A program made the translations under genes and the position numbers. DNA of 64,000 nucleotides. Source: Octopus vulgaris. Taxonomy: Eukaryota. Positions 6,960 through 29,871 of the stretch are shown piece by piece (positions within the stretch are counted from its first letter, which is position 1; the number at the start of each line of letters is the position of its first letter). Below the pieces are notes generated by a model, which was given only the letters and a program-made list of their open reading frames with translations, was not told the DNA's origin and made no database searches. Location of the stretch: NCBI GenBank assembly GCA_951406725.2, contig OX597836.1:3596001-3660000 (forward strand), in the 5' to 3' direction.

Positions 6960-7598
6960 CTAACTTCCTGCAACCTGTTCATTTGCAAATAAGCTTCTTT
7001 CGTGTCTTCTCAGCAAGAACTTCATCCAATGTAATTTCGAATAATCCACCAGTTCTTCCAGTTCTTCGTCTCTCTCATCTTCTCTCTTCACATTTCCTTC
7101 TTCGACCAGCCTCGGCGGAACGACGGTCGTTTTCTCTGGGATTCCATCTTCTTGTTTAGAGTTTGAGGGACGAGGAAATTCATTCGACGCTTGCTGACAC
7201 AATTCAACATTTGAGTTCTGGCAATAGAGACAACATTTCCGATCAATAGTGATGTAACCACATTCACCACACTTCACACATTGTAAGTTGATGACTTCCA
7301 TTCCGAAGGGATGGTCATAAACAGCATTCTCATATTGAACATGGTTCTCTCGTGGTTGATTGCTGTGGGTTCCAGGTCCAAATTCATACGGCTGATAGTC
7401 TGAGGATTTCGTGTCTTCCTTCTCCATTGCTTCTACCAAATTCTCCATAGACCTGGACTCGTCTTTAATCTTCTTCTCGTTACTCAGTAAATTCTGGTCT
7501 CCTGCAAATTTTCCTTGCTCTTCGTTCTGATTGAAGAAATCAGCTTCTTTCTCTCCACCGCACTCCATCTCTTCATCTGATCTCTGGAATTTCATCAT
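6960..7598 (-). CDS. Unknown acidic protein with a Cys cluster, 212 aa, family copy 1
   Basis: Uninterrupted non-repetitive ORF kept open in four copies. Contains CVKCGECG...CCLYC...C and a C-terminal EELEELVDYSKLHWMKFLLRR helix-like segment; TATAAAA lies upstream. Confidence 0.75.
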   Translation of the reverse strand: MMKFQRSDEEMECGGEKEADFFNQNEEQGKFAGDQNLLSNEKKIKDESRSMENLVEAMEKEDTKSSDYQPYEFGPGTHSNQPRENHVQYENAVYDHPFGMEVINLQCVKCGECGYITIDRKCCLYCQNSNVELCQQASNEFPRPSNSKQEDGIPEKTTVVPPRLVEEGNVKREDERDEELEELVDYSKLHWMKFLLRRHERSLFANEQVAGS

Positions 7599-7623
7599 AT
7601 TTGGTTCCTTGTTCTCACTTGGC

Positions 7624-7630
7624 TTTTATA
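7624..7630 (-). promoter_or_regulatory. TATA-box-like TATAAAA, copy 1
   Basis: Starts 32 nt before the ATG; same position in all four copies. Confidence 0.5.
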
Positions 7631-8886
7631 AACCCGAAGATAAAATATACGATAGCAATAGTAGTAGTAGTGGTAGCGGAGACTTCTAACGCTGGAGATT
7701 TCGTAGATGTGTGTAAGGCGAGGCGAATTGAAGGTATGGTGGTTCGGCTCAAAGTCCAGCCCTTTTATGAAGGGACGCACAATGCCGTTCCTTAAAACCA
7801 CGTTCGCTAGGGGTTGTTTTTGCCTTCTTTTGTTTCTTTCTTTCTTAATATCCTTTCTTTTTCTTTCCTTCCTTCTTTCATTCATTCATTCTTTCTTTTC
7901 CTACCTCCCTCTCTAACACCTCCTACCTACTCCTCGCTAACTCTCCTCCCCTCCCTCCTTTTCTTTCTTTCGTTCCCTCCTTTTTCCCTTCCTCCCTCCC
8001 TCGCTCCCATAACCCCTCTCCCACCAAGACACAATCCCCCAACCTCCATAACTATCGCCTCCCTCCTTTTCTTTCTTTCTTTCTTCCTCCCTAACTACCA
8101 CCCTCACCCTTCCCTTTCTTTCAATCATTCTTTCTTTCTTTTCTCCTTCTTTCTTTTTTCTTTCCATGCTGACCACTCACAGTTAATTGATTTATTCGAA
8201 TATTCGTGTGTGTATATATATATATTTATATGTGTGTGTGTATGTGTGTGTATGTATGTGTGTGTGTGTATATTTATATATACATACATATATATATAAT
8301 AATATTGGGGAGTATATATATACATATATATATGTGTGTGTATGTATGTATGTATGTATGTATGTATATATATATATATATATATATATATATATATATA
8401 CGCACACACAAACATATACATATATATACACACACATATTTATATATGATTTTTATGATTTATATATGATTTATAAAACATGTGACATTAATATCCGAAA
8501 ATATAAAACCATCCTGATTTCTGAGTACCTTTTTTCCTCTAATATATATATATGTATACACACCAGTACGTATAAATTGTGAAGCATGACTGTCAACACT
8601 ACTACATGAACCTGAAGATTGCAGAATTCAATGCATGAAAGTACTAGTTCAATCAGAATGAACATTTAACATTCTACTATTTCATTTTATTTTATTCTAT
8701 TATAATATATTATCTTATAATATATCATTATAAGATTGTAAATAAAACGTGAAAATCAGACAAGGTTGGAATTCCTTTTATTAATATATATATATATATA
8801 TATATATATATATATATATATATATATAATATATATACGTGCGCACACACACACACACACACACACATACATACACACACACACAA

Positions 8887-9187
8887 TCCTGTTCCCTCTC
8901 GAGCAATGCCTGGCTCATAAGGGCCGCTTTCCCGGTTTCCTTGGCGTATAGGTTCCCCACCTGGACGGGACGCCGGTCCGTAGCAGTGAGCTGCAAGATG
9001 CAGGAGGAAAGAGTGAGAGAAAGTTGTGGCGAAAGAGGCAGCAGAAGTTCGCCATTACCTTCTTCCGGAGCCGCGTGGAACTCGGGTGTTTCGCTCAAAA
9101 ACACACACATCGCCCGGTCTGCGATTCGAACTCGCGATCCCTCGACCGCAAGCCCGCTGCTCTAATCACTAGGCCATGTGCCTCCAC
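8887..9187 (-). mobile_element. tRNA-derived SINE, family C
   Basis: Minus-strand head ggaggcacatggcctagtgattagagc...gagttcgaatc with A and B boxes; related heads at 31990, 56035 and 58855. Confidence 0.7.
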
Positions 9188-9199
9188 ACACACACGCGC

Positions 9200-27248: not shown

Positions 27249-27255
27249 TATAAAA
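27249..27255 (+). promoter_or_regulatory. TATA-box-like TATAAAA, copy 4
   Basis: Starts 32 nt before ATG 27281. Confidence 0.5.
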
Positions 27256-27280
27256 GCCAAGCGAGAACAAGGAACCAAAT

Positions 27281-27919
27281 ATGATGAAATTCCAGAGATC
27301 AGATGAAGAGGTGGAGTGCGGTGGAGAGAAAGAAGCTGATTTCTTCAATCAGAACGAAGAGCAAGGAAAAATTGCAGGAGACCAGAATTTATTGAGTAAC
27401 GAGAAGAAGATTAAAGATGAGTCCAGGTCTATGGAGAATTTGGTAGAAGCAATCGAGAAGGAAGACACGATATCCTCAGACTATCAGCCGTATGAATTTG
27501 AACCTGGAACCCAAAGCAATCAACCACGAGAGAGCCATGTTCAATATGAGAATGCTGTTTATGACCATCCCTTTGGAATGGAAGTCATCAACTTACAATG
27601 TGTGAAGTGTGGTGAATGTGGTTACATCACTATTGATCGGAAATGTTGTCTCTATTGCCAGAACTCAACTGTTGAATTGTGTCAGCAAGCGTCGAATGAA
27701 TTTCCTCGTCCCTCGAACTCTAAACAAGAAGATGGAATCCCAGAGAAAACGACCGTCGTTCCGCCGAGGCTGGTCGAAGAAGGAAATGCGAGGAGAGAAG
27801 ATGAGAGAGACGAAGAACTGGAAGAACTGGTGGATTATTCAAAATTACATTGGATGAAGTTCTTGCTGAGAAGACACGAAAGAAGCTTATTTGCAAATGA
27901 ACAGGTTGCAGGAAGTTAG
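27281..27919 (+). CDS. Unknown protein, 212 aa, family copy 4
   Basis: Intact ORF; shares EKKIK and the LFANEQVAGS C-terminus with copy 1. Confidence 0.75.
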   Translation: MMKFQRSDEEVECGGEKEADFFNQNEEQGKIAGDQNLLSNEKKIKDESRSMENLVEAIEKEDTISSDYQPYEFEPGTQSNQPRESHVQYENAVYDHPFGMEVINLQCVKCGECGYITIDRKCCLYCQNSTVELCQQASNEFPRPSNSKQEDGIPEKTTVVPPRLVEEGNARREDERDEELEELVDYSKLHWMKFLLRRHERSLFANEQVAGS

Positions 27920-29379
27920 ACATTGAAAAGTGCCGTTGATATAACTGGTATGAAACTTTTGTAGGTACTGCAAAGAGTTGTGCTCATCTAAGTGATGTGA
28001 TAGGACATGTAAGAGACGATCCCGTCTCAACATTGAGATTTTGATGATTTCTTCTTCTTTTTCTTTTCTTAATTATCATCATACAAATTCCTTGGTTTTT
28101 CAAATTGGAAATATATTTTGGGGGTCGGGAAGGTGGGGAGTTCTTAAGGGGTTTTATTCTTGCTATGACTATTTGGACATATCCACAGTATTTTTGTAAA
28201 TTCCATAATGGATATTTTGAATAAAACTTAATAATTGTGCAATAATAATAATAATAAAAATATTTTCTAACAATTCGGTTTTGTTGTCATTTCTTTCGGG
28301 TTTTGCGCTTAAATAAAGAAAATAAAAATAACCCCCAAAAAACAGAAAATTACAAATAATACAAACATAAATACATGCGAGTGCGCGCACCAACACACAC
28401 ACATATCCGAGGGTGTAGATACGCGGAATTCTTTTTCTTTTAACTGTTTCAGTCATTCCAGTGAGGCCATGCTGGAACACCGCCTTACATACATACATAC
28501 ATACATACTTACATACATACATACATACATACATACATACATACATACATACATACATACATACATACATACATACATACATACATACATACATACACGA
28601 CGCAAATTTTCTAGCCCTTCATTCCTTTAGGTGCGTCAGGTCAAATGTTTAACCTCGGCGTTAAAAGTCATTAATTTGGCGATGAACGACCGCTGACATC
28701 TGAGTGAAGAGGTCAGTGGCAGTTGAAAGCAGTCATCCGTACAGGCACCCCTGAAGCTTTCGGCCGAATTAATGACAGCTACACATTCAACTTGGCAGAG
28801 GCGCACAAAGGACCAACTAAAATCACAAAATGTTTGCAGAATGTTAAGATTAATCAGTGATAAGGTGACGGCATTTTATGCTTTCAGCTATTACTACCAA
28901 CAAGTGGTTTCCTCGAGTTAGCGCTACCACGTGAATTAACTTAGCAGAGAAGCTTATGTGACTAGATATATTTTAAAGGGCTCCCGGCTGAAGAAAATAC
29001 ACAGGCGTAGACACACTGACTCTGTTTATTGAAAATCAGTAATTTGTCCTGCGCCAACAGACTGGGTAGAAATGTCTCTCTACACACGTCTACAAAATCT
29101 TATCCAACGTACAATTCTCATCGCATAATAAGTCTATGTATCTATAGGGAGATTTGCTTCATTTTACACTGAAGGTAAATTAGCGATACAAACGTGATTC
29201 GAACCTGCTGTGGTTAGTAACGCATGTGTAGTTCTTTGATGTAAATCTGCTGTTTTATTGAAGACTTGTCAAATTCGTACATTGTGCCGTGTTGCTCGGA
29301 ATCGTTCTTTAGTCGTAAATTCTCTCTGATTCGACGATTGTTATTACCACAACAACTCGATCTCCACAACTTTAAAGAG

Positions 29380-29871
29380 ATGGAGAAAGAATACGTTATT
29401 CACCCGAAGAACAAATACTCTCTTTCTGATAACGGAAAAAATATGAAGAAATTTTCGATATCGGACCAACAGACGAAGTATGGCGAAGAGAAAGAGGAAG
29501 AACTCCTGACTCGGAACGAAAAGGTACAAGAAGATTCTGGAAAAAGGGATTTAGCCGGTGATGAGAATGCTAATGTTGGCTCCAGTCTCATGACAGATGT
29601 AGATGTCTGTCCTCTGTATGAGCAAGACTCCACTTCCGAACGATCGCAACAAACTTGGAATTATTCTTCCAGCAAAGACGATATACAAGAAGATGGAACG
29701 GCATTGAAATTCTCCGCTATATCAACCAGGAACGATGGGAAGCGAGAATATGTTGAAGATGACGAAATCGAAAACCTCATTTATTTAAACACACACTGGA
29801 AAAAGTTGGTGTTCCAAAGATATTTAAATTTGAACACAAGTTCAAACGATTTCAAAAAGCGCAAACATTAA
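29380..29871 (+). CDS. Diverged paralog of the same family, 163 aa from the first ATG
   Basis: Three colinear blocks align to copies 1-4: MKKFSISDQQTKYGEEKE / MMKFQRSDEEMECGGEKE; CPLYEQDST...QEDG / CCLYCQNST...QEDG; KREYVEDDEIENLIYLNTHWKKLVFQR / KREDERDEELEELVDYSKLHWMKFLLRR. The frame is open from 29266; AATAAA at 30011. Confidence 0.75.
   Translation: MEKEYVIHPKNKYSLSDNGKNMKKFSISDQQTKYGEEKEEELLTRNEKVQEDSGKRDLAGDENANVGSSLMTDVDVCPLYEQDSTSERSQQTWNYSSSKDDIQEDGTALKFSAISTRNDGKREYVEDDEIENLIYLNTHWKKLVFQRYLNLNTSSNDFKKRKH

Follow-up and report, generated by a model that had tools for sequence, protein, structure and literature searches.

A two-type cluster of putative CIR1 retrogenes in Octopus vulgaris

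The window analyzed here, 64,000 nt of Octopus vulgaris contig OX597836.1 (assembly GCA_951406725.2, positions 3,596,001 to 3,660,000, forward strand), carries five intronless open reading frames (ORFs), all of which are almost certainly processed copies of the spliced mRNA of CIR1 (corepressor interacting with RBPJ 1), a gene with roles in splicing and co-repression: each copy can be aligned to the spliced parent through the exon junctions, and the intron-bearing parent lies on another contig. Four are of a long type, namely copy A (6960..7598, minus strand, 212 a.a), copy B (18235..18876, minus strand, 213 a.a), copy C (21736..22377, plus strand, 213 a.a), and copy D (27281..27919, plus strand, 212 a.a), with 89–99% protein identity among them. 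The short-type copy E (29380..29871, plus strand, 163 a.a) is ~30% identical to A–D, a similarity above chance (tblastn within the window, E 1e-7 to 8e-7). An initial annotation, made from the letters alone, had correctly placed the five ORFs, with four of 212–213 a.a and a far more diverged fifth, and had taken them for an unrecognised family that might be undescribed; this view falls with the derivation from CIR1 and with the RefSeq name of an Octopus sinensis member, XP_029650211.1 ("corepressor interacting with RBPJ 1-like"). The annotation had itself stated that a match to a characterized family would speak against it, and CIR1 is that match. The route of retroposition, truncation, and amplification is a known one; this case of it is undescribed.

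Processed Origin from CIR1

In a Pfam scan, the ORFs had no match below E 0.04, those seen being sub-threshold and attributable to chance, and a word-based protein search with D recovered, among 172 candidates, solely the protein of the window itself. In a search of the genome from which it comes, D hit, besides the four long copies, a single further place, C18:14389362-14389511 (E 4.8e-5), which proved to be an exon of 152 nt bounded by AG and GT. This exon aligns to human CIR1 residues 107–149 (E 1.4e-19) and matches 164 of 166 candidate proteins, of which nearly all that carry a name are CIR1; the Pfam domain Cir_N is found 6 kb upstream in the same orientation. With cuttlefish CIR1 as a guide, we built a parent gene model on C18 comprising nine coding exons from 14398583 downwards, with canonical AG/GT sites and a 587-a.a CIR1 product; the copies are on C23.

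The spliced coding sequence (CDS) of the parent aligns to E without gaps over nt 1–220 (64.5%, E 2e-21), ATG on ATG and with two junctions spanned, to A–C over nt 110–588 (56%, five junctions spanned), and to D over nt 268–588. Seven parent junctions fall within the aligned part (CDS nt 72, 167, 246, 311, 463, 549, and 635), none of them marked by an intron-sized gap in the copies, and the eighth lies beyond the copies' stop. The parent detected the copies via tblastn at E 1e-21 to 1e-23 for A–D and 1e-6 for E, with Smith-Waterman z values of 14–34 (300 shuffles), and a profile-profile comparison (hhalign) of the copies with 27 CIR1 proteins scored 99% (E 2e-18). A profile of the five ORFs run against 1.84 billion proteins yielded 117 matches, led by three family members and followed by CIR1 proteins; among eight further matches outside the family, four were named CIR1 or CIR-domain, one was a hypothetical protein under a different label, and three had no useful name. 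Identity to the parent is 35% for E and 27–28% for the long copies, compared to the 80% shared by squid and octopus CIR1.

On the 3′ side of the copies nothing resembles the parent's tail (alignment scores within those of shuffles), and the flank alignment showed no poly(A) remnant or target-site duplication, although no search aimed at target sites was made. Homology to mobile-element or viral proteins was likewise not found, with no Pfam match below E 0.04 and CIR1 as the best relative. No further copies were detected in the genome outside the window, a count to be read as a lower bound, nor in the 50 kb upstream. We did not count as a copy a weak tblastn match at 60126-60209 within simple repeats, and a third Cir_N match (on C14, under the cut-off and with a stop) displayed nothing CIR1-like.

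Founding Copy and the Two Types

Copies B, C, and E all stop at parent codon 230 (TCA), counted gap-free from parent His205. E and B have 23 residues in common that differ from the parent, and the flanks of E and the long copies are partly shared (3′ score 28, shuffle maximum 21; 5′ score 18, shuffle maximum 17). Given these shared derived residues, stop, and flank pieces, there was one founding copy, followed by DNA duplication: this copy ended at parent codon 230 and then split into the long type (A–D) and the short type (E). The initial annotation had instead regarded E as an ancient paralog that lacked an optional module. By our comparison, E is not an older form but a sister copy that lost the module through an in-frame deletion of ~64 codons, with most of the zinc knuckle among them, and its identity to the parent exceeds that of the long copies. 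The start codon of E is the parent's own ATG, and its end includes a basic KKRK stretch; copy A spans parent codons 22 to ~230.

The retrocopy probably arose in the octopod lineage. The octopus parent and the copies share a short deletion and His205, both absent from cuttlefish CIR1, and one tree placed the copies on the octopus branch (86/90, with a long-branch warning); an earlier tree left the placement open, and dating by single substitutions was even, with eight octopus-state and eight decapod-state residues among 29 sites. As for its end, codon 230 is covered by the parent CDS's most A-rich 30-mers, which begin at nt 669-676, such that the copy may have been primed at this tract or may have acquired a nonsense change there later. 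A plausible course would be that the enzyme of a long interspersed element (LINE) reverse-transcribed the spliced CIR1 mRNA from a priming site in exon 8, where the lysine codons are rich in A, with a subsequent nonsense mutation at codon 230 as the alternative source of the stop.

Motifs and Predicted Structure

The cysteine pattern, the EKKIK/EKIK indel, and the H-W-x-K block described in the initial annotation are all present. The Cys block of the long copies corresponds to the CIR1 zinc knuckle (parent C126, C129, H134, and C141), which accords with the predicted zinc-binding module, and H-W-x-K corresponds to parent H205-Q-K-K. In D, the DHPFG motif and knuckle lie at 27563..27658 (plus strand; parent 114-145) and retain three parental Cys, and the H-W-x-K block lies at 27848..27874 (plus strand) within a predicted C-terminal helix; the equivalent in E begins at 29794. 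In A–D and the O. sinensis member, His134 has become Tyr and new Cys occur at parent positions 132, 142, and 145. C126/C129 and C142/C145 could form two CxxC pairs, a predicted all-Cys zinc site rebuilt in A–D.

Public proteins extend both types. P0131 (207 a.a, 51% to B) is of the long type and retains all four ligands of the C-x2-C-x4-H-x6-C pattern, with a weak match to zf-CCHC_6 (PF15288; 17 bits, below the cut-off of 22), and P0127-P0130 (169 a.a, 69% to E) are of the short type; all five keep the start, the H-W pair, and the KH-stop end. Between P0131 and B, the knuckle block is identical at 22 of 28 positions, compared to 82 of 177 elsewhere (p=0.002), which makes it the best-conserved part. 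The H-W-x-K block stressed in the initial annotation is present in both types and only borderline conserved. Across E, P0127, P0131, and B, 22 of 135 compared columns are invariant, about half of them derived (e.g., W206 and the terminal His).

Outside these blocks, little of CIR1 persists. The Cir_N domain (PF10197) was not matched in A, B, D, E, P0131, P0127, or P0125 in a scan in which cuttlefish CIR1 scored 49 bits, and the long copies are missing parent residues 1-21 and are just 11% identical over 22-57. The lost parent tail comprises 358 basic, RS-rich residues (+69, 41 RS/SR dipeptides). Net charge has moved from +11 in parent residues 1-229 to between −7 and −20 in the copies, in agreement with the acidic protein initially described. 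The C-terminal helix proposed at the same time is also confidently predicted by AlphaFold (28 sequences, helix 177-212), with the rest of the model of low confidence.

Selection on the Reading Frames

To judge by the sequences, the reading frames have been kept open long-term by selection, and the copies are very probably functional genes, as the initial annotation supposed when it took them to encode a real protein. Parental codons evolved neutrally over 0.3-1.4 substitutions per site (2000 runs) accumulated a mean of 6–13 stops; at each distance, none of 2000 runs stayed open for the long type and at most five of 2000 for the E type. A branch model gave an omega (ratio of non-synonymous to synonymous rates) of 0.58 over all retro branches together (p=0.034). 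Outside the B/C pair, the long ORFs differ by 2.3–3.1% and their flanks by 5.4–7.9%, with indels far more frequent in the flanks. That chance alone has left the frames of processed pseudogenes open appears close to untenable. Recent omega near 1 would suit such an explanation, but E and B have a synonymous divergence of ~1.3 with both frames open, where 6–13 stops per lineage would be expected under neutrality, and intact distant orthologues of both types exist.

Protein change is nonetheless still fast, at an omega of ~0.6, and the recent changes look neutral. Of the 25 variable codons among A–D, 18 alter the residue. The ORFs themselves show two alignment gaps in the A/D versus B/C comparison, of 3 and 1 nt. 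The former is the EKKIK/EKIK difference, first taken to be the only indel; the latter is an additional base in A and D near 27890 (D numbering) that shifts the frame of their last residues. The B/C state at this site is also found in runs X1–X3, which represent three other organisms, and in the O. sinensis protein. A separate observation is that five of the nine differences between E and runs X1/X2 fall within 15 bases (29677-29691), all in amino-acid-changing codons.

A second view of these data, which we hold to be rather improbable, is that the retrogenes were once functional and selection is now relaxed, the young amplification being a side effect of unstable palindromes and decay being under way in some copies. 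The fit of recent substitution counts to neutrality, the frameshift in A and D that removes the conserved KH-stop end, the loss of His134 in A–D, and an ORF-less copy and flank remnants inside the cluster (described below) all accord with it. Against it, intact ORFs are seen in the four long copies, in the O. sinensis member, and, for E, in both run X1 and run X2; indels that are frequent in the flanks are rare in the ORFs; and the counts are too small to tell an omega of 0.5 from 1.

Possible Function

As a whole, we favor, tentatively and at somewhat below even odds, an account in which the copies are selected CIR1 retrogenes that encode small acidic binding proteins, probably in the germline. 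The genes would be transcribed from a locally acquired promoter, and their products would use the zinc knuckle and C-terminal helix that they retain to bind a CIR1-type partner, but would not perform the work of CIR1 itself. Retrogenes are generally germline-expressed, and expression in germ cells might thus be expected here. Candidate signals are present: a TATA-like TATAAAA lies 32 nt before the ATG of D (27249..27255, plus strand) and at the same position before A, B, and C, though not before E, and AATAAA-like signals lie downstream of all five copies, the first beyond D at 28220..28225 (plus strand). A ~40-nt upstream motif (29081..29119, plus strand) is common to E, the long copies, and the ORF-less copy, with a score barely above that of shuffles. 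A search of sequencing runs listed no RNA run that contains the copies, and runs X4 and X13, which are guessed to be RNA, leave the ORFs uncovered; neither result says anything about expression. Run X4, which may be DNA, has one 229-nt contig over the upstream flank of D (27048-27232) and none over the ORF.

Within this account, an adaptor or decoy (competitor) role through the knuckle and helix is our leading, though still tentative, candidate, ahead of a wholly new function, present-day decay, and substitution for CIR1, in that order. We favor it since the copies retain the middle and end of the CSL-binding region and lack the N-terminal domain and the basic tail. In a review (PMC5037638), the CSL-binding domain is assigned to CIR residues 1–240, and CIR is described as linking CSL to histone deacetylase (HDAC) complexes. 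Somewhat less probable is that the retrogenes function outside CIR1 biology, as a scaffold recruited to a new partner in which the retained blocks are merely structural. The derived state of about half of the invariant columns, the reversal of charge, and the low identity to the parent would all be expected of a new function. Less so are the standing of the knuckle block as the best-kept part and the preference of the long copies for parental residues at positions that do not vary among CIR1 orthologues (27 of 72 versus 31 of 136, p=0.03; E not significant).

That the copies stand in for CIR1 in particular tissues, within the spliceosome or a CSL co-repressor complex, we consider very unlikely. 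The copies do span the conserved N-terminal half of CIR1, and human CIR1 is a chain of PDB entries 6ZYM and 8I0W, the latter being a spliceosomal C complex according to PMC11283556. However, the undetected Cir_N domain, the missing or barely similar first 57 residues of the long copies, and the lost basic tail are difficult to reconcile with substitution. A more specific and distinctly speculative form of the adaptor idea, which we would not expect to hold, is an old octopod family of acidic splicing-factor decoys, in which the long type, during its palindromic amplification, would recently have swapped the CCHC site for an all-Cys one and which would modify germline splicing or Notch/CSL repression under genetic conflict.

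Several observations weigh against the favored account of selected binding proteins. For the structural part, the Cys cluster reaches p=0.009 for the knuckle window and only p=0.09 for any window; E retains just the last knuckle Cys, and the two types cannot share a knuckle mechanism; significant conservation of the nine-residue block that starts at H205 is seen in two of six pair tests; and the AlphaFold model has a mean predicted local distance difference test (pLDDT) score of 52. For the selection part, no single retro branch is significantly below an omega of 1, and the comparison of E with B gave 0.56, indistinguishable from 1 (p=0.09). The low ORF divergence among A–D may reflect gene conversion between the inverted arms, as synonymous sites are also below flank divergence. 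The differences of E from X1/X2 (seven non-synonymous, two synonymous) and of D from X3 (11 and 4, among 40 of the 130 rows listed) both fit neutrality.

Cluster Architecture and Surroundings

The long type has undergone a recent local inverted amplification, as seen from the two nested pairs of arms. The inner palindrome (18087..22525) has arms at 18087-19405 and 21207-22525 that are 99% complementary and carry B and C, palindromic partners 3 nt apart in sequence. The outer inverted pair (6640..28239) has arms at 6640-7641 and 27238-28239 that are 96% complementary and carry A and D. At the center of the B/C palindrome lies a near-perfect hairpin (20080-20545; 223-nt arms, 99%, 20-nt gap). 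In runs X1–X3, the contig depth over 27000-28000 is ~2–4× that over 29000-30000, as would be expected if those organisms carry several long copies, although depth is not copy number.

A sixth, ORF-less copy (10008..10584, plus strand; 76–82% to D) consists of the 5′ flank directly followed by the final few codons and the 3′ flank, with the TATA-like box and almost the entire ORF deleted, and on this evidence is a deletion derivative of the gene unit. It was also considered as a pre-insertion site and rejected, being closer to the long copies than the flank of E is and retaining their last codons. A 3′-flank-only remnant of a long-type unit lies at 1623..2136 (minus strand, 87% to D), and 3′-flank fragments lie at 12787..13183 (plus strand, 83–90% to D). 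At 1617-2394, two pieces of the downstream flank of D occur in swapped order (28486-28761, then 27947-28486), likely a duplication junction.

Elsewhere, the window holds a local duplicate at 4025-4963 and 14062-15512 with its own inverted repeats (77–99% identity, unrelated to the ORFs), direct repeats of ~430 nt at 10858-11285 and 11684-12119 (98%), and others of ~380 nt at 38392-38768 and 44792-45176 (90%). Repeats resembling short interspersed elements (SINEs) and AT/AC microsatellites are dense throughout, and long YI/HT-rich "ORFs" are their translations. A Pfam scan of 57 of 130 candidate stop-to-stop frames elsewhere in the window gave no match.

Relation to Known Systems

CIR1 resembles the copies in its colinearity over parent residues 1 or 22 to 229, its DQPFG-type motif, its knuckle, and the helix that follows an acidic stretch; unlike them, it has introns, a tail past residue 229, a detectable Cir_N domain, and a basic charge. 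The copies, for their part, are multiple, only 27–35% identical to it, and have lost the knuckle His in A–D or the knuckle itself in E. XP_029650211.1 is a direct long-type member (91–95% identical to B, C, and D), for which the database gives a name and is silent on retro-origin, truncation, the short type, and amplification. CIR1 homology was therefore already implied by RefSeq. A second Cir_N locus in the genome (C25:19271063-19271146) is possibly CWC25 or LENG1, and the copies map to the exons of CIR1 instead. These two paralogues from the wider Cir_N group retain the N-terminal domain lost in the copies, and PMC13736545 lists both as Cir_N-domain splicing factors.

Retrogenes with later tandem or palindromic amplification form a general class with examples in mammals and Drosophila. 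Like the octopus copies, they are intronless, distant from an intron-bearing parent, fast in protein evolution, amplified as inverted repeats, and accompanied by decayed copies. Germline expression and sex linkage are typical of such families. A published primer for checking Z-linkage matched five places on C1, C2, C16, and C27, and none on C18 or C23. The titles and abstract openings covered by our literature search, which left subscription papers and supplements outside its scope, contained nothing on this locus or on octopus CIR1 retrogenes, and no octopus case of such an amplified retrogene family.

The cluster replaces a supposed orphan family with a traceable history that includes a parent, exon junctions, a truncation point, two subfamilies, an amplification, and a deleted copy, and it illustrates that 27% identity can hide a parent from Pfam and word-based searches. 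If expressed, these copies would be a cephalopod case of a new gene derived from a core splicing factor, and the natural series of intact, remodeled, and absent knuckles could then show which parts of CIR1 are reusable.

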